Shown: one piece after another, positions 8,926 to 61,769 of the stretch
Layout of the letters: every line of letters starts with the position of its first letter
How positions within the stretch are numbered: the stretch's first letter is position 1
Assembly: GCA_963754655.1 (NCBI GenBank)
Contig: CAVWGN010000001.1
Location: 2,912,001-2,976,000 of the forward strand
Direction: 5' to 3'
Length of the DNA: 64,000 bases
Source of the DNA: an uncultured Chlamydiae bacterium
GTDB lineage: Bacteria; Chlamydiota; Chlamydiia; Chlamydiales; Parachlamydiaceae
The notes under the pieces: model-generated
Database searches by the model: none
Told to the model about the DNA's origin: nothing
What the model saw: only the letters and a program-made list of their open reading frames with translations
Made by a program: the position numbers and the translations under genes

Positions 8926-9043
8926 CTAGTACTCCATTACATTAGTTTTAGCCTATTGGGACTGCTTCAAAGCCCCGGAATTGGGATGAGATGATTCTCT
9001 TGTAGTCTTCAGACTACATGACGATGGGCAATCTAACCCAGGG
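8926..9043. repeat. Repeat family B, left part
   Basis: CTAGTACTCCATTAC...TGTAGTCTTCAGACTACA...CTAACCCAGGG is nearly identical to 59921-60036; its terminus recurs at 9443-9457 and inverted at 27055-27079. Confidence 0.85.
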
Positions 9044-9442
9044 CTAGGGTGTTCATTTTGTGCAAAAAATGAGCTTTATTTTTCACAATAATTGGCATAG
9101 TTAAATTGAAGGTCGCATGTTTATGCCGTCCTTTCAGGACTCGATGTCTTTTTGATAGAACCCAGGCCTCCGCTTCGCTGCGACCTGGGCTGTAACATGA
9201 CAGCCCTTCAGGCCTTAACAAAAAGATGATTTAGGGACTATAGAAGAGGGACTTAAACATCTCTTGTTAAGGCCTGAAGGGCCGTCATGTTACAGCCCAG
9301 GTCGCAGCGAAGCGGAGGCCTGGGTTCTATCAAAAAGACATCGAGTCCTGAAAGGACGGCATAAACATGCGACCTTCAATTCAACTATGCCAATTATAGT
9401 GAAAAATAAAGCTCATTTTTTTGCACAAAATGAACACCCTAG
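9044..9442. mobile_element. Palindromic MITE/REP-doublet family A, copy 1 (399 bp, intact)
   Basis: CTAGGGTGTTCATTTTGTGC...GCACAAAATGAACACCCTAG; ~185-bp inverted arms around a ~30-bp core; copies at 16531 and 42961. Confidence 0.92.
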
Positions 9443-16377: not shown

Positions 16378-16523
16378 CGGGACTTAACAAAGAACTGTTT
16401 TGGGCTTGATGTTTTTCGCGTCATTTTCGAGAAATATGCCTCTAAAGCCTTTTACAGGCGTGGTGCTGTTAAATTGACGCGATGAATATCAAGCCCAAAA
16501 AACAGTTCTTTGTTAAGTCCCGG
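16378..16523. mobile_element. MITE family C (~146 bp)
   Basis: ~33-bp inverted ends (C)CGGGACTTAACAAAGAACTGTTTTGGGCTTGAT; CCCAGGG on both sides; four more copies within 60049-61692. Confidence 0.9.
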
Positions 16524-16622
16524 CCCAGGGATAGGGTGTTCATTTTGTGCAAAAATGAGCTTTATTTTTCACAATAATTGGCATAGTTGAATTGAAGGTC
16601 GCATGTTTATGCCGTCCTTTCA

Positions 16623-18084
16623 GGGACAATTGCAGAATAAACAATAAATTATTTTAATTTACCACTTTCAAAAAAAGGCTCCTTAATATAGTCTAGATGT
16701 AGAAAAACCGTCTTAAACTATACAAGGAACCGAAAAATGTTCAGAGAAAAATTATCGCAAATGTGGAATAACGTACAGTCTACTCTTTTTCCTGATTTAA
16801 TCAAACGAACTCATGAACTCTGCCCTGAGTATAAAAAATTAGTATCAATTCTGGAACTTGTTCGTATTGAAAGTCATATTCCGCGATCCTTCAAATTAGG
16901 AAGGCCACCAAAAGATCGCATCGCAATGGCTAGAAGTTTTATCGCAAAAGTAGTCCTAAAACAACCTTACACTAAACAAATTATTCGCCTGCTAAACCAG
17001 GATGAACAATTGAGGATTATTTGTGGTTGGGAGGCAAATCATAAAATTCCTTCTGAATCTAAATTTTCTAGAGCTTTCAAAGAATTTAGCCAAATAACCC
17101 TTCCGGATAGGGTTCACCAAGCATTGGTTAAAGAATTTTACAAGGGAGAGATCATAGGACATGTGATAACAGATTCTACACCCTTAGAAGCACGTGAAAA
17201 ATCATTAAAAAAACCATGTGCAAAAACACGTCGAAAAGAAAAAGACAAAGAAAGAAGAAGAATGAAAAGTGCTGGAGAACCAAATCTACGTCAACAGCAG
17301 TTGAATGAACCAGATCTTCGAAAAATGGTAGAACATCTTCCTATAGCATGTGACAAAGGCATGAAAAGAAATCCTCAGGGATTTCACATTTTTTGGAAAG
17401 GCTATAAGTTGCATACTAATGTTGATGATAATGGAGTCCCTTTGGCTGCAATTGTCACATCTGCATCGTGTAATGACTGTGAAGTTGCAATTCCTTTATC
17501 TCTAAAAACAAGCAAGGTAGTAACTAATTTGTACGATTTAATGGATGCAGCTTACGATTATCCAGAAATCAAGGAATTTAGCCGATCCCTTAATCATATA
17601 CCAATTATCGATCAGTGTTCGCGAAGTGCAGCTCAAAAAAAGGCAAAAATGGAAGAGAAAAAAAGAAAAACTCTTTTAAATTTTAAAACAGCTGAAGAAA
17701 AGAGGTACGCAGAGCGATTTCCCAAAGAATCCTTTAATGCATTCTTTAAGGACTATTGTGGAGGACATAGGATATATTACAGAGGATATCAGAAAGTCTC
17801 TTGCCATGCATTATTTGGAGTATTAACAGCGGCCGCTATGATGTTATTGAAATTCACTTCCTAAAGATCGATTAAATTTCAAAGATTGACAGTATCTTCT
17901 TACGTTACCCCCTGCCAAAATTAGATCAATTTTTAAAAAAATTCAAAAAATTCGAATGTTTTGCATAAAAGTGTTTTTTTTTCATTAAAACTTAGTCGTC
18001 TAGAATCGATTCTTTTCGATCTCAGGTACAATTGACAGAAAAAAAATCGCAGTATAACACGCTAAATAATTCTGCAATTGTCCC
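16623..18084 (+). mobile_element. Insertion sequence, 1462 bp, copy 1
   Basis: 16-bp TIRs GGGACAATTGCAGAAT; duplicated TTTCA (readable as 5, 7 or 9 bp); second copy at 43054-44515. Confidence 0.95.
16737..17864 (+). CDS. DDE transposase (IS4/IS5/IS1182-like)
   Basis: PSESKFSR, DST, GYKLH, MDAAYD, YxxRxxxE motifs; exact IS family not assigned. Confidence 0.92.
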   Translation: MFREKLSQMWNNVQSTLFPDLIKRTHELCPEYKKLVSILELVRIESHIPRSFKLGRPPKDRIAMARSFIAKVVLKQPYTKQIIRLLNQDEQLRIICGWEANHKIPSESKFSRAFKEFSQITLPDRVHQALVKEFYKGEIIGHVITDSTPLEAREKSLKKPCAKTRRKEKDKERRRMKSAGEPNLRQQQLNEPDLRKMVEHLPIACDKGMKRNPQGFHIFWKGYKLHTNVDDNGVPLAAIVTSASCNDCEVAIPLSLKTSKVVTNLYDLMDAAYDYPEIKEFSRSLNHIPIIDQCSRSAAQKKAKMEEKKRKTLLNFKTAEEKRYAERFPKESFNAFFKDYCGGHRIYYRGYQKVSCHALFGVLTAAAMMLLKFTS

Positions 18085-18154
18085 TTTCAGGACTCGATGT
18101 CTTTTTGATAGAACCCAGGCCTCCGCTTCGCTGCGACCTGGGCTGTAACATGAC

Positions 18155-18482
18155 GGCCCTTCAGGCCTTAACAAAAAGATGATTTAGGGACTATAGAAGA
18201 GGGACTTAAACATCTCTTGTTAAGGCCTGAAGGGCGGGCCCTTTAAGCCTTAACAAAAGGACTATTTATGGACTATAGAAGAGGGACTTAAATCTCTCTT
18301 GTTAAGGCCTGAAGGGCCGGCCCTTTAAGCCTTAACAAAAGGACTATTTATGGACTATAGAAGAGGGACTTAAATCTCTCTTGTTAAGGCCTGAAGGGCC
18401 GGCCCTTTAAGCCTTAACAAAAGGACTATTTATGGACTATAGAAGAGGGACTTAAATCTCTCTTGTTAAGGCCTGAAGGGCC
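18155..18482 (+). repeat. Four tandem 82-bp units (core of element A)
   Basis: Units start at 18155, 18237, 18319, 18401; the last three share variant bases. Confidence 0.93.
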
Positions 18483-18686
18483 GTCATGTTACAGCCCAGG
18501 TCGCAGCGAAGCGGAGGCCTGGGTTCTATCAAAAAGACATCGAGTCCTGAAAGGACGGCATAAACATGCGACCTTCAATTCAACTATGCCAATTATTGTG
18601 AAAAATAAAGCTCATTTTTGCACAAAATGAACACCCTAGTCCAGGGATCATTGCTATCCCTTAAATAACCAAATAGCTGGATTTGT

Positions 18687-27094: not shown

Positions 27095-27976
27095 GGTCAA
27101 GTTGACCGCTTTTAAAACAATGTTCGGACATGAAATAAATATTTATACGTAAATTAAAATATGATAAAAATTTTAATTTCTTGCTATATCGCGGAGCGAT
27201 AAAAGTGGGAAGCCCCGCATGCAGCGTAAGGCCGGTAGGCCTGAAGCGGAATGTGGGGCTGCCAAACCAAATTCTTAAGTCGCGGAAGCGACGACAGAGG
27301 GAGATATGACTCATTCCTATCGGCTGCATTATTTCCATCTTATTTGGTCAACCAGACAGCGACTCCCTCATATCGCTCCTGATGTTCAATCCCGTCTTTA
27401 TCCCTATTTGGGAGCTATTACACGGAATCATTCAGGAAAACTGTTAGAGATCGGAGGAATGTCAGATCATGTTCATTTATTAATAGAGCTTTCTTTACTC
27501 GATAAATTTTCTCATTTTATCAGAGATCTAAAAGCATCTTCCTCTCAATGGATTCATAAAAATTTTCCCAATCTCCATGATTTTGCCTGGCAAGAAGGCT
27601 ATGGATCTTTTTCCGTAAGTTATTCAGCTCTACAAGATGTACAGAAGTACATACAAAATCAAGAACAACATCATGCAACTATGTCATTTAAGGATGAATA
27701 TCTTAAATTCTTGAAACATCATCATGTAAAATATGATGAAAGATTTGTATTGGGATGATCACATTCACTATCCTTACGCTGCTCCCGCAGCTTAATGATC
27801 TTTTGGATACACCCCCACATTCCGCTTCAGGCCTACCGGCCTTACGCTACATGCGGGCTTCCCACTTTTATCGCTCCGCGATATAGCAAGAAATTAAAGT
27901 TTTTATCCTGTTTTAATTGACGTATAAATATTTATTTTATGTCCGAACATTGTTTTAAAAAGCGGTCAAGTTGACC
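27095..27976 (+). mobile_element. Y1 tnpA element with ~200-bp inverted arms
   Basis: 27095-~27295 is the reverse complement of ~27775-27976 (near-identical over ~165 bp, looser inward); both ends read GGTCAAGTTGACC. Confidence 0.88.
27306..27758 (+). CDS. tnpA: IS200/IS605-superfamily Y1 HUH transposase
   Basis: HLIWST, DHVHLL (HUH), WQEGYGSFSVS, YIQNQ. Confidence 0.93.
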   Translation: MTHSYRLHYFHLIWSTRQRLPHIAPDVQSRLYPYLGAITRNHSGKLLEIGGMSDHVHLLIELSLLDKFSHFIRDLKASSSQWIHKNFPNLHDFAWQEGYGSFSVSYSALQDVQKYIQNQEQHHATMSFKDEYLKFLKHHHVKYDERFVLG

Positions 27977-43053: not shown

Positions 43054-44515
43054 GGGACAATTGCAGAATTATTTAGCGTGTTATACTGCGATTTTTTTTC
43101 TGTCAATTGTACCTGAGATCGAAAAGAATCGATTCTAGACGACTAAGTTTTAATGAAAAAAAAACACTTTTATGCAAAACATTCGAATTTTTTGAATTTT
43201 TTTAAAAATTGATCTAATTTTGGCAGGGGGTAACGTAAGAAGATACTGTCAATCTTTGAAATTTAATCGATCTTTAGGAAGTGAATTTCAATAACATCAT
43301 AGCGGCCGCTGTTAATACTCCAAATAATGCATGGCAAGAGACTTTCTGATATCCTCTGTAATATATCCTATGTCCTCCACAATAGTCCTTAAAGAATGCA
43401 TTAAAGGATTCTTTGGGAAATCGCTCTGCGTACCTCTTTTCTTCAGCTGTTTTAAAATTTAAAAGAGTTTTTCTTTTTTTCTCTTCCATTTTTGCCTTTT
43501 TTTGAGCTGCACTTCGCGAACACTGATCGATAATTGGTATATGATTAAGGGATCGGCTAAATTCCTTGATTTCTGGATAATCGTAAGCTGCATCCATTAA
43601 ATCGTACAAATTAGTTACTACCTTGCTTGTTTTTAGAGATAAAGGAATTGCAACTTCACAGTCATTACACGATGCAGATGTGACAATTGCAGCCAAAGGG
43701 ACTCCATTATCATCAACATTAGTATGCAACTTATAGCCTTTCCAAAAAATGTGAAATCCCTGAGGATTTCTTTTCATGCCTTTGTCACATGCTATAGGAA
43801 GATGTTCTACCATTTTTCGAAGATCTGGTTCATTCAACTGCTGTTGACGTAGATTTGGTTCTCCAGCACTTTTCATTCTTCTTCTTTCTTTGTCTTTTTC
43901 TTTTCGACGTGTTTTTGCACATGGTTTTTTTAATGATTTTTCACGTGCTTCTAAGGGTGTAGAATCTGTTATCACATGTCCTATGATCTCTCCCTTGTAA
44001 AATTCTTTAACCAATGCTTGGTGAACCCTATCCGGAAGGGTTATTTGGCTAAATTCTTTGAAAGCTCTAGAAAATTTAGATTCAGAAGGAATTTTATGAT
44101 TTGCCTCCCAACCACAAATAATCCTCAATTGTTCATCCTGGTTTAGCAGGCGAATAATTTGTTTAGTGTAAGGTTGTTTTAGGACTACTTTTGCGATAAA
44201 ACTTCTAGCCATTGCGATGCGATCTTTTGGTGGCCTTCCTAATTTGAAGGATCGCGGAATATGACTTTCAATACGAACAAGTTCCAGAATTGATACTAAT
44301 TTTTTATACTCAGGGCAGAGTTCATGAGTTCGTTTGATTAAATCAGGAAAAAGAGTAGACTGTACGTTATTCCACATTTGCGATAATTTTTCTCTGAACA
44401 TTTTTCGGTTCCTTGTATAGTTTAAGACGGTTTTTCTACATCTAGACTATATTAAGGAGCCTTTTTTTGAAAGTGGTAAATTAAAATAATTTATTGTTTA
44501 TTCTGCAATTGTCCC
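43054..44515 (-). mobile_element. Insertion sequence, 1462 bp, copy 2
   Basis: Same TIRs, length and TTTCA duplication as copy 1, opposite orientation. Confidence 0.95.
43274..44401 (-). CDS. DDE transposase, same protein as 16737-17864
   Basis: Identical 375-aa translation in the ORF track. Confidence 0.92.
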   Translation of the reverse strand: MFREKLSQMWNNVQSTLFPDLIKRTHELCPEYKKLVSILELVRIESHIPRSFKLGRPPKDRIAMARSFIAKVVLKQPYTKQIIRLLNQDEQLRIICGWEANHKIPSESKFSRAFKEFSQITLPDRVHQALVKEFYKGEIIGHVITDSTPLEAREKSLKKPCAKTRRKEKDKERRRMKSAGEPNLRQQQLNEPDLRKMVEHLPIACDKGMKRNPQGFHIFWKGYKLHTNVDDNGVPLAAIVTSASCNDCEVAIPLSLKTSKVVTNLYDLMDAAYDYPEIKEFSRSLNHIPIIDQCSRSAAQKKAKMEEKKRKTLLNFKTAEEKRYAERFPKESFNAFFKDYCGGHRIYYRGYQKVSCHALFGVLTAAAMMLLKFTS

Positions 44516-44546
44516 TTTCAGGACTCGATGTCTTTTTGATAGAACC

Positions 44547-44950
44547 CAGGCCTCCGCTTCGCTGTGACCTGGGCTGTAACATGACGGCCCTTCAGGCCTT
44601 AACAAAAAAATGATTTAGGGGCTATAGATGAGGGACATAAGACTCTCTTGTTAAGGCCTGAAGGGCTGTCATGTTACAGGCGCAGGCCTTCGCTTCGCTG
44701 CGACTGGGCTGTAATAGGCCGGCCCTTCAGGCCTAAACAAAAAGATGATTTAGGGACTATAGAAGAGGGACTTAAACATCTCTTGTTAAGGCCTGAAGGG
44801 CCGTCATGTTACAGGCGCAGGCCTCCGCTTCGCTGCGACCTGGGCTGTAACATGACGGCCCTTCAGGCCTAAACAAAAAGATGATTTAGGGACTATAGAA
44901 GAGGGACTTAAACACCTCTTGTTAAGGCCTGAAGGGCCGTCATGTTACAG
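44547..44950 (+). repeat. Three tandem ~136-bp units within element A
   Basis: Units start at 44547, 44683 and 44818. Confidence 0.88.
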
Positions 44951-45245
44951 CCCAGGTCGCAGCGAAGCGGAGGCCTGGGTTCTATCAAAAAAACTTAGGT
45001 AAGAGAACATTGATTCATGGAAAATCATTGTCATGGGTTGCTGATATAATCTTTCAGGAGGATTTAGTTAAAATACCGGGACTGAATAATTGAAATATTT
45101 TTGACCAAAAAAACTATCTTTAAATGATCTTAATTAAATTTAAGTAGAGGAATTGTTATAATTACATAAGAAGAATAAAATTTTATTCTTTAAAACTTTA
45201 TAGAATGTCAAAATTTCTGACATTAGCTGTAAAGGAATGCGTATT

Positions 45246-59920: not shown

Positions 59921-61769
59921 CTAGTATTTCATTACATGAGTTTAGCCTATTGGGACTGCTTCAAAGCCCGGGATTGGGATGAGATGATTCTCTTGTAGTC
60001 TTCAGACTACATGATGAGGGCTAATCTAACCCAGGGCGATGCCCTGGACCGGGACTTAACAAAGAACTATTTTTGGACTTGATATTCGTCGCATCAATTT
60101 AGCAACACCACGGCTGTAATAGACTTTAGAGGCATATTTCCCGAAAATGACGCGAAAAACATCAAGCCCAAAACAGTTCTTTGTTAAGTCCCGGCATATG
60201 GCTAGGTAATCGGAATTTTTATCTTTGTTTTTGCAATGTTGCTTGATCCATATCCTTTCCCTCAGCGACGAGCGGCGTTAGCCGCGCATGGATAGTAGCC
60301 GTGGGTGTAGGCGCAAGCCGAAACCCACGGTTACCCACAAAACAAATTTGAGCCACGTTAGTGGCGTAGCATTCGTTTAAATAAACATCGCTCCACTATC
60401 ACATTTCCTACGCCACTAACGTGGCTTCATTTTTTTTACCATACACCGTGGGTTCCGGCTTCGCCTACACCCACGGCTACTATCCATGCGCGGCTAACGC
60501 CGCTTGAGCGACAAACTTAGCTTCTGGAGTTTGCCGGAAGCATTTCGTTCCTAGCTTATGGCCGGGACTTAACAAAGAACTGTTTTGGGCTTGATGTTTT
60601 TCGCGTCATTTTCGGGAAATATACCTCTAAAGTCTACTACAGGCGCAGTGTTGTTAAATTGACGGGACGAATATCAAGCCCAAAACAGTTCTTTGTTAAG
60701 TCCCGGCCATAGGCTAGGATCGAAATGCTTCCGGCAAACTCCAGAAGCTAAGTTTGTCGCTCAAGCGGCGTTAGCCGCGCATGGATAGTAGCCGTGGGTG
60801 TAGGCGCAAGCCGAAACCCACGGCTACCCTCAAAACAAATTTGAGCCACGTTAGTGACGTAGCATTCGTTTAAATAAACATTGCTCCACCATCACATTTC
60901 CTACGCCACTAACGTGGCTTCATTTTTTTTACCATACACCGTGGGTTCCGGCTTCGCCTACACCCACGGCTACTATCCATGCGCGGCTAACGCCGCTTGA
61001 GCGACAAATTCAGCTTGTGGAGTTTGCCGGAAGCATTTCGATCCTAGCCTATGGCCGGGACTTAACAAAGAATTGTTTTGGGCTTGATGTTTTCGCGTCA
61101 TTTTCGGGAAATATACCTCTAAAGTTTATTACAGGCGCGGTGTTGTTAAATTGACGGGACGAATATCAAGCTCAAAACAGTTCTTTGTTAAGTCCCGGCC
61201 ATAGGCTAGGATCGAAATGCTTCCGGCAAACTCCACAAGCTGAATTTGTCGCTCAAGCGGCGTTAGCCGCGCATGGATAATAGCCGTGGGTGTAGGCGCA
61301 AGCCGAAACCCACGGTTACCCTCAAAACAAATTTGAGCCACGTTAGTGGCGTAGCATTCGTTTAAATAAACATTGCTCCACCATCACATTTCCTACGCCA
61401 CTAACGTGGCTTCATTTTTTTTACCATACACCGTGGGTTCCGGCTTCGCCTACACCCACGGCTACTATCCATGCGCGGCTAACGCCGCTTGAGCGACAAA
61501 TTCAGCTTGTGGAGTTTGCCGGAAGCATTTCGATCCTAGCCTATGGCCGGGACTTAACAAAGAACTGTTTTGGGCTTGATTTTTTTCGCGTCATTTTCGG
61601 AAAATATGCCTCTAAAGTCTATTACAGGCGCGGTGTTGTTAAATTGACGGGACGAATATCAAGCCCAAAAATAGTTCTTTGTTAAGTCCCAGCCCTGGGT
61701 TAGATTAGCCCTCTTCATGTAGTCTGAAGGACTACAAGAGAATCATGTCCTCCCAACCCGGCTTAAAAG
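59921..61769. repeat. Mosaic array B-left / C / D* / C / D / C / D / C / B-right
   Basis: C at 60049-60194 (inverted), 60562-60706, 61055-61198, 61547-61692; D at 60202-60554 (altered left end), 60714-61047, 61206-61539; 7-bp linkers. Confidence 0.92.
60714..61047. mobile_element. Palindromic family D unit (334 bp)
   Basis: CTAGGATCGAAATGC...GCATTTCGATCCTAG; ~148-bp arms around a ~40-bp spacer. Confidence 0.88.

Follow-up and report, generated by a model that had tools for sequence, protein, structure and literature searches.

Among the transposases of the Y1 type, IS608 TnpA and Escherichia coli TnpA-REP bind and cut their hairpins in single-stranded DNA, and Y1 transposition as known from IS200/IS605 leaves no target duplication behind. 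Subclass 1.2 of these enzymes has been characterized by the motifs DH[IV]H, WQ and YIKNQKEHH, a length of about 148 aa, a conserved C-terminal tail, a low copy number and an identity of about 36% between the copies found in one genome, and it is stated, in the part of that work considered here, to occur without repetitive extragenic palindromes (REPs) and generally without terminal structures of the IS200 type (PMC6006769). The same part assigns the TIRYT proteins mostly to subclass 2.1, with the terminal inverted repeat (TIR) motif GGGGWSAS, whereas GTAG repeats and Y1 genes with flanking repeats have been described in Planctomycetes and Verrucomicrobia by Di Nocera 2013 (PMC3733652, likewise as far as considered here), a work which may partly overlap the modules reported below. 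We have analyzed a stretch of 64,000 nucleotides (the window) from an uncultured Chlamydiae bacterium of the Parachlamydiaceae (contig CAVWGN010000001.1, positions 2,912,001 to 2,976,000), in which positions 27095-27976 contain a single open reading frame (ORF), the Y1 gene tnpA, placed between two inverted arms with three hairpins each. With a probability of about 0.6, we read this locus as a REPtron-like element, that is, a subclass-1.2 Y1 gene flanked on either side by a copy of its cognate DNA module, the two copies being inverted with respect to each other. The parts of the element are the following, where R1 stands for a covariance model described further on:

27095-27186, no strand: left outer arm of the tnpA element, an inverted copy of 27885-27976 outside the three-hairpin module and within a 199-nt inverted repeat of 89% identity
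27187-27292, plus strand: left three-hairpin module, with a small hairpin at 27187-27201, AGCC at 27211-27214, a large hairpin at 27211-27260 and a small hairpin at 27279-27292 (R1 match and fold)
27306-27758, plus strand: tnpA, 150 aa, a Y1/HUH enzyme of the TnpAY1 subclass 1.2 type (DHVH, FAWQ, YIQNQEQHH)
27778-27883, minus strand: right three-hairpin module, inverted, with a small hairpin at 27778-27791, a large hairpin at 27814-27857 and a small hairpin at 27869-27883 (R1 match and fold)
27885-27976, no strand: right outer arm of the tnpA element, from the inverted-repeat comparison

Within the overall alignment of the left and right arms (199 nt, 89%), two segments are better preserved, 27110-27215 against 27855-27960 (106 nt, 95%) and 27214-27261 against 27810-27857 (48 nt, 96%), and around 90 nt of the inverted repeat lie beyond the module on either side. 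In the left arm the outer small hairpin, TATCGC-GGA-GCGATA, is followed 9 bases on by AGCC and by the large hairpin, which is long and branched, and a linker of 20 nt then leads to the inner small hairpin, GTCGC-GGAA-GCGAC. A preliminary description of the locus had attributed this last hairpin to both arms; the right arm reads instead GCTGC-GGGA-GCAGC (GCTGC-TCCC-GCAGC in plus-strand letters), which differs from its left counterpart by two paired stem changes, T-A to C-G and C-G to T-A. Each of these changes alters both sides of the stem and pairing is kept, which supports the inner small hairpin. Folded as DNA, the left arm has a z of −5.43 and the right arm (minus strand) a z of −3.78, with none of 200 shuffles as good in either case. 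The overall picture given earlier, a Y1/HUH gene between inverted three-hairpin arms, is thus borne out by the arm alignment, the folds and R1.

The product of tnpA belongs, as had been proposed, to the Y1 HUH superfamily (Pfam Y1_Tnp, PF01797: 92.5 bits, E 2.8e-26, residues 7-119), and residues D54, H55, H57, Y115 and Q119 are invariant in all five aligned paralogues, among which the motifs read DH[VI]H, WQ and YI.NQ.EHH. The closest solved structures in a search of the PDB are ISDra2, IS608 and Sulfolobus TnpA, and no chain of E. coli TnpA-REP, whose entry we take to be 4ER8, was returned by this search at E≤10. The traits of subclass 1.2 are all found: DHVH, FAWQ and YIQNQEQHH, 150 aa, one full copy, and 37-43% identity to the paralogues, the assignment being made by comparing motifs by eye with Table 1 of PMC6006769. 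The NCBIfam IS200 model gives 66.3 bits (cut-off 55) and the NCBIfam model REP_Tyr_transpos 25.3 bits against a cut-off of 80, so that the class 2 protein signature of REP-associated tyrosine transposases (RAYTs) is absent. A quick tree of 82 rows, in which 16 of 80 homologous loci were excluded for truncated matches and the Shimodaira-Hasegawa-like approximate likelihood ratio test (SH-aLRT) is the sole support, separates the group from canonical IS200 genes on a branch of 100 SH-aLRT and places the paralogues of this genome in three or more separate groups, all of which also include relatives from other Chlamydiota. To judge from its sequence, the window protein is an IS200-like subclass 1.2 enzyme and not a canonical RAYT; hence, from the REPtron-like system proposed initially, the layout is retained and the protein as a canonical RAYT is not.

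The module itself has a defined layout of some 85-105 nt, composed of a small hairpin, about 10 nt, a large hairpin tagged by (T)AG before its CC, about 20 nt, and again a small hairpin. A protein search returned 593 relatives in other genomes, the best 80 of which were used (mostly Planctomycetota, Verrucomicrobiota and Acidobacteriota, also Chlamydiota), and the folded flanks of the homologous genes have the same three-hairpin layout as the window, with modules picked by a strict scanner in 71 of 86 loci. The covariance model R1 was built from 54 aligned modules, 53 of other phyla and one of this genome belonging to a type designated X, and comprises 82 positions and 18 pairs; its seed includes no sequence from the tnpA arms or from families A and D, the two gene-less giant palindromes of the window. 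When R1 was run on the window with filters off, 18 matches were obtained at E≤1, of which 13 have E<1e-4, these 13 all being full-length, and below E 0.01 nothing in the window is matched besides the tnpA arms, family A and family D. The six D modules score 43.7-50.3 bits and five A modules 30.9-37.9 bits, and the tnpA arms 36.9 bits (27188-27292, plus strand, E 1.2e-6) and 28.7 bits (27778-27882, minus strand, E 7.5e-5). Since R1 matches all three although it was built without them, one module is common to the tnpA arms, A and D beyond chance. A fortuitous likeness of three unrelated palindromes was considered and is rejected on the R1 matches in the window, on the count of the strict scanner in the whole genome (369 three-hairpin modules with the AGCC tag, as opposed to 3 when the sequence is reversed) and on the identities between the modules of paralogues and those of A and D.

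The sequences and folds of families A and D are as previously described, their geometry being that of the tnpA arms, and R1 matches both. The strands of these matches also confirm the orientations then given, as the modules run plus then minus (inward) in the tnpA element and in D, and minus then plus (outward) in A. As to the DNA folds, the D module at 60272-60365 has z values of −6.44/−5.81, and the A module at 9271-9357 has a z of −2.51, a value equalled by 4 and 2 of 200 shuffles, which is weak on energy alone. At the tag site of the genome the dinucleotide AG is six times commoner than any other, and BLAST counts in this genome amount to 266 modules for A, 71 for D, 38 for a further family, E, and 18 for X.

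Over the 80 homologous loci R1 gives 226 matches: a plus-strand module lies within 150 nt upstream of the gene in 65 loci (median 26 nt) and a minus-strand module within 150 nt downstream in 64 (median 21 nt), both sides being occupied in 56 of the 80 and at least one side in 73. None of eight canonical IS200-type loci, taken as control, has an R1 match at E≤0.01. In a sample of 101 Chlamydiota genomes full-length genes of the subclass-1.2 type (>150 bits) occur in five, and each of the five has one or more gene copies with flanking modules. The module is an ancestral companion of subclass-1.2 genes in many phyla. In the alignment of 150 of the 226 matches (149 distinct modules), 2608 of 2671 stem cells are Watson-Crick (97.6%), 35 are G-T (1.3%) and 13 A-C, the large hairpin has three or four pair types at most positions, and the tag before CC reads T in 132, A in 150 and G in 150 of the 150; the AG invariance and the paired share arise partly by construction, and the latter is inflated, because of the choice of seeds and the model-fitted alignment. 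The loops of the two small hairpins are GNA or GNNA in 107 and 115 of the 149 modules. The large hairpin was seen in two forms, a long one (A, D, E, the tnpA arms and the loci L016, L022, L039, L060 and L065) made of a stem, TG.AGCG, a short apical stem, GCGGAA or GCGAAA, and a stem, and a short one made of an 8-bp stem and a TTCA or GNRA-like tetraloop.

The genome has ten Y1_Tnp matches, seven full length and three fragments; six of the full-length genes are of the window-gene type and the seventh, Y1a, is of the canonical IS200 type. The canonical IS200-type gene (C1:1646434-1646799, Pfam 144.7 bits) has DHVN at the HUH site and may be inactive. The paralogues of the window gene are located on contig C1 as follows:

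C1:395753-396202: Y1d, with an A-type module on both sides, inward and without outer arms, 67/79 and 81/86 identical to A
C1:2802162-2802605: Y1f, with a D-type module at its 3' side only, 75/90 identical to D
C1 ~2542103-2548300: Y1c, Y1e and a broken third copy, with a module of the fourth type, X
C1:2429359-2429802: Y1g, with weak module matches only

Matches of R1 adjoin Y1d, Y1f and Y1c/e. The occurrence of tnpA paralogues with A- or D-type modules had been set beforehand as a check, and it is observed for Y1d, flanked by the A type, and for Y1f, with the D type on its 3' side. An orthologue of Y1f in a metagenome-assembled genome of the Parachlamydiaceae (L067; 114/148 identical) has a D-type module at 3' as well, and the small-hairpin stems of this module vary by paired changes. 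The X-type module lies 5' of Y1c/Y1e, and X halves flank A and D insertions in the window. The cognate pairs of the genome are window tnpA and its own arms (with E, distantly), Y1d and A, Y1f and D, and Y1c/e and X; four such gene-module pairs in one genome are new, as are the counts of target duplications reported below. Each family is provided with a paralogous gene, in the manner of REP classes and their RAYTs, so that the shared recognition by structure rather than sequence suggested in the preliminary description is not needed. The stretch C1:2542103-2548300 is segmentally repeated, with three Y1c-type genes in 6 kb, two intact and near-identical and one truncated with stop codons. Two family E copies (C1:452538-452855 and C1:602638-602931) interrupt degenerate Y1c-like genes close to their start (flanks ...cttgcaag / cacttgcaag...), so that a gene-less relative of one Y1 unit has disrupted copies of another.

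The homologues, and not the window element, provided a link to Acido-Lenti-1 (RF01687), rated 'RNA? y' in Table 1 of Weinberg 2010 (PMC2864571, in the part considered here) and in a preprint of October 2026 still 'of unknown function'. RF01687 covers the large hairpin, GGCUA, the linker and the outer small hairpin, which correspond to the outer two thirds of the module on the other strand, without the third hairpin. It scores 39-48 bits beside the homologous genes, on both sides, 36.4 bits beside Y1d and 36.4-38.7 bits on family A modules, and in this genome it has at least 150 matches (150 of 1077 candidates scored), with 11 above the gathering score of 37. The tnpA arms of the window match neither RF01687 nor any other Rfam family at E≤1; with their long, branched large hairpin they are too divergent for it, though the module family includes the motif. 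The Rfam model, dating from 2010, is an independent support for the AG and for the pairing of the module. In respect to the nature of the molecule, hairpin loops of the C-GNA-G kind are classic, very stable DNA mini-hairpins, and the scarcity of G-T, still striking for an RNA despite the inflated paired share, the GNA/GNNA loops, the mirrored arrangement and the palindromic doublets argue for a single-stranded DNA role on the AGCC strand. From these features we favour a module that acts as single-stranded DNA rather than as RNA. No published link of subclass 1.2 or of Acido-Lenti-1 to flanks of this kind was found in the literature searched.

The gene-less palindromes and arrays of the window are distributed as listed here:

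8950-9046: half X module, with the small hairpin GTAGTC-TTCA-GACTAC and then CCCAGGGC; further copies at 59940-60037 and 61692-61760
9047-9439: family A giant palindrome, with the shell TIR GGGTGTTCATTTTG, TA on both sides, and outward A modules at 9128-9214 (minus) and 9271-9357 (plus); it sits in the tip of an X large hairpin
16534-18637: second family A palindrome, split at a small hairpin by an insertion sequence (IS) at 16625-18082, with A modules at 18080-18167 (minus) and 18470-18556 (plus)
44511-45008: array of family A modules in alternating orientation, similar to a bacterial interspersed mosaic element; it adjoins another end of the hairpin-targeting IS
60042-61699: array of family D doublets, with inward modules, alternating with another palindromic repeat (GGGACTTAACAAAGAAC...)
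60272-60365 (plus), 60412-60503 (minus), 60765-60858 (plus), 60905-60996 (minus), 61257-61350 (plus) and 61397-61488 (minus): D modules of this array

The second A palindrome contains tandem small-hairpin units between its two A modules. At the level of the genome, the commonest shell of family A (shell 1) has the ends GGGTGTTCATTTTG..., and 64 of its 68 copies lie between two TA dinucleotides; its target sites are the tips of other families' large hairpins, being self-complementary at 18/18 positions in 21 copies and at no fewer than 14/18 in 44 of the 68, with CTAG at the centre in 32. A second A shell has different ends and 6-bp duplications in both copies read. Empty shells were not found, all but 3 of 160 shell-1 arms being followed by the A core, and extra A modules form alternating arrays. 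Family D, with arms of its own, occupies 28 loci, of which 20 are simple inward doublets of about 230 bp, in addition to arrays; it always adjoins another palindromic repeat, and no duplication is readable at its ends. Family E consists of around 33 near-full gene-less copies of about 320 bp, with the ends GGGTGTGATTAAATC... and a 9-bp duplication which is 9/9 in 11 copies, 8/9 in 4 and 7/9 in 2 (17 of 26 copies at 7/9 or better, against a control maximum of 5/9). A stretch of 54 nt, at 81-85%, is common to family E and the tnpA element, and the layout of E is that of the tnpA element with the gene deleted and both flanks kept.

Non-coding, bounded by TIRs and accompanied by target duplications, family E and A shell 1 have the defining traits of miniature inverted-repeat transposable elements (MITEs), and the TIRs and duplications of A and E are the signature of MITEs of the DDE type. 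The giant palindromes consist of the modules, arranged as inverted doublets or as arrays; we read the doublets as cores similar to REPINs (REP doublets forming hairpins) which probably spread within MITE-like shells, and DDE enzymes are very probably responsible for the most recent moves of A and E. Indeed, the initial proposal that A and D are non-autonomous relatives of a tnpA-type element is upheld as regards the common module and given up as regards plain Y1 derivatives, in view of the TIRs and target duplications of A and E. Module doublets are also found within outer inverted arms in a chlamydia of another family (G064), with no consistent target duplication in the few copies whose flanks were read. 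In one other genome a gene-bearing unit is present twice (L032, L040), and the likeness of the two copies coincides precisely with the outer edges of their modules; they have five further inverted bases, no outer arms and no flank duplication, and in this single pair the ends appear to fit a Y1-type unit.

No transposase matching the shell ends GGGTGTGATT... and GGGTGTTCATTT... was found. Widely spaced pairs of GGGTGT... ends (>900 bp), examined as a possible autonomous element, turned out to be family A copies with other insertions, namely a DDE_Tnp_1 IS, a 400-aa ORF and a 384-aa ORF, none of which owns the ends of the shell. The IS at 16625-18082 (ORF 16737-17864, 375 aa, DDE_Tnp_1 and DUF772) has a 9-bp duplication, CCTTTCAGG, and another end of it lies at ~44400-44516. 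This DDE_Tnp_1 IS is inserted only in the A small hairpin GTCC-TTTCA-GGAC, as every one of its 12 left and 10 right ends in the genome directly adjoins this hairpin, with copies in either orientation, and it is thus hairpin-targeting like the REP-targeting ISs of Proteobacteria. At C1:263511-265316 an A palindrome contains an insertion with a 400-aa ORF, by eye an IS256/Mutator-type transposase, with the ends GATTGTGTAAAAAATTATGTGC... and the duplication ATCTTTTTG. The extra palindromic repeat of about 150 nt (60042-60206, 60550-60685, 16400-16523 and others) has the ends GGGACTTAACAAAGAAC... / ...GTTCTTTGTTAAGTCCC, alternates with D doublets and sits at GGCC within the palindrome CCTAGCCTATGGCCATAGGCTAGG.

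The genes near the tnpA element are rpsD, a yidD-like gene and a glycosyltransferase gene. No target duplication is seen in the flanks of the window element, and no orthologous empty site is readable in two genomes of the same genus (G075, G095), which have rpsD and yidD in common with the window; there the similarity extends no further than the stop codon of yidD, and the gene that follows in the window is missing. The genome has one full copy of the tnpA element, plus fragments, and the ends given above may be apparent only, since other partial copies run beyond the apparent end into another common stretch.

According to the REPtron-like reading, and by analogy with known Y1 enzymes, the enzyme would bind and cut its own module once the DNA becomes single-stranded, and the AG that invariably precedes the large hairpin would belong to the site of recognition or cleavage. 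The gene-less doublets would have arisen by gene loss, as suggested by the two flanks of a tnpA-like unit retained in family E, and the high copy numbers of A and E would have been reached mainly by doublets riding MITE-like shells moved in trans by DDE transposases, the module hairpins in turn serving as possible landing sites for DDE-moved elements. A number of points weigh against this reading, in which binding, cleavage and movement are all assumed by analogy. The seeds were picked by a scanner that requires AGCC and perfect stems, and the alignment (A4) was fitted to the model. The arm type of the window tnpA is rare, with 2-4 copies by BLAST in the genome; the 5' module of Y1d is without the inner small hairpin and was missed by R1, Y1f and its L067 orthologue have a module on one side only, and Y1g has weak R1 matches only. 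Two Chlamydiota genomes have module matches without an intact gene (G014, one weak match and a partial Y1 only; G068, two matches). The link between E and tnpA rests on the 54-nt stretch, the common layout and weak R1 scores of 22-30 bits, and no autonomous DDE partner with matching shell ends was found in the genome. Finally, the target duplications imply that the last moves of A and E did not proceed via the known Y1 mechanism, and the Y1 genes may have no part in the spread of the gene-less copies.

This last thought leads to an explanation in which the palindromes are moved by DDE transposases alone, with modules as passive cargo picked up once and Y1 genes as inactive relics or passengers. 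It agrees with the TIRs and duplications of E (9 bp), A shell 1 (TA) and A shell 2 (6 bp), with the doublets inside outer inverted arms of G064, and with the absence of empty shells, all but 3 of the 160 shell-1 arms leading into the A core. We nevertheless consider it unlikely, as doublets are carried by four or more shells whose ends are unrelated (those of E, both A shells and the tnpA-element arms), each module type pairs with a different intact paralogue, the HUH and Tyr motifs are intact, and the order module-gene-module recurs across many phyla, in 56 of 80 loci, with no shells wherever the ends are readable.

The left end of IS200 contains regulatory hairpins and an antisense RNA, and the module might likewise be a structured RNA of small size (Acido-Lenti-1), or else terminate or regulate the neighbouring gene, the Y1 link being then regulatory. 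The RF01687 matches, the 'RNA? y' rating (PMC2864571, as limited above) and an inner small hairpin located 6-30 nt before the start codon in many loci speak for such a role; however, the stems are 97.6% Watson-Crick with 1.3% G-T, GNA triloops closed by C-G dominate, the module is mirrored behind the gene and hence on the opposite strand there, and palindromic doublets and arrays remote from any gene of this kind hold hundreds of copies, all of which makes an RNA quite improbable. It is most improbable that we are dealing with an ordinary IS200/IS605 insertion sequence and its gene-less derivatives (palindrome-associated transposable elements, PATEs): although the NCBIfam IS200 model is above its cut-off (66.3 bits against 55), the best solved relatives are ISDra2 and IS608 TnpA and hairpins lie close to the ends, there is one full copy only, with paralogues 37-43% identical, the ends are mutual inverted repeats and not two hairpins on one strand, canonical IS200 genes are split off in the quick tree (100 SH-aLRT), and canonical IS200 loci are without the module (0/8).

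The REPtron-like element, which we prefer to these alternatives, could be part of a broader scheme that we put forward as speculative and rather doubtful. Subclass 1.2 and its modules would constitute a second phylum-spanning world of the REP/RAYT type, present in Planctomycetota, Verrucomicrobiota, Acidobacteriota, Chlamydiota and other phyla, with Acido-Lenti-1 as its DNA repeat instead of an RNA and with hairpins that nucleate shells, and the palindromes would reflect cross-talk between single-strand and double-strand transposition. In such a scheme four enzyme-module pairs would coexist, the symmetric outer arms would result from nicks made by Y1 enzymes or from copying primed by the hairpins, and extruded tips would attract transposons that duplicate TA, 6 bp and 9 bp.

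These results point to a DNA role as the likely identity of an Rfam family of 'function unknown' since 2010, and provide a Y1 subclass described as REP-less with a conserved, covarying DNA partner in many phyla, so that the question of how REP/RAYT repeats arise and spread is widened beyond Proteobacteria. The genome is a good test bed, with four cognate enzyme-module pairs of unrelated sequences and one geometry in a single cell. A warning for annotation also follows, as hundreds of small RNA ('sRNA') calls may be mobile-DNA repeats.

The comparison with known systems, each taken as described in the part of its source considered here, places the locus closest to REPtrons and REPIN-RAYT systems, such as E. 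coli TnpA-REP with its REP/BIME repeats and the RAYTs of Pseudomonas, in which likewise a low-copy Y1 gene lies between inverted tagged hairpin repeats, several paralogues per genome have each their own repeat class, gene-less inverted doublets and alternating arrays are dispersed, and insertion sequences target the repeats (PMC2817692, PMC3116915, PMC3479197). The RAYT layout of a gene between inverted dispersed repeats is found here, with a weak dispersal for the tnpA arms (2-4) and a strong one for the types of the paralogues (A 266, D 71). The differences are as follows: the window protein is of class 1 (Y...Q..HH) and RAYTs are of class 2 (Y...NP); the module has three hairpins and 85-105 nt in place of the single 20-40 nt hairpin of a REP; the tag is (T)AG before CC and reads GTAG only in some families, the foot of the large hairpin being GTAGCC in D, CAGCC in A and AAGCC in the tnpA arms against the GT[AG]G of RAYTs; and the gene-less doublets are, unlike those of REPtrons, inside shells with TIRs and target-site duplications. 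From IS200/IS605 elements of subclass 1.1 the locus is set apart by its single full copy, its inverted-repeat ends and the split in the tree, even if the IS200 model still gives 66.3 bits. In motifs, length and copy pattern tnpA resembles subclass 1.2 as defined in PMC6006769; unlike in that account, 73 of 80 homologues have a module on at least one side. With TIRtrons and their TIRYT genes (PMC3733652) it has in common a Y1 gene between long inverted repeats, which are found elsewhere as scattered dimers and in clusters, and the gene-less copies are, like MITEs, non-coding with TIRs and target duplications; unlike in TIRYT systems, the shells are here a layer outside the Y1 modules.

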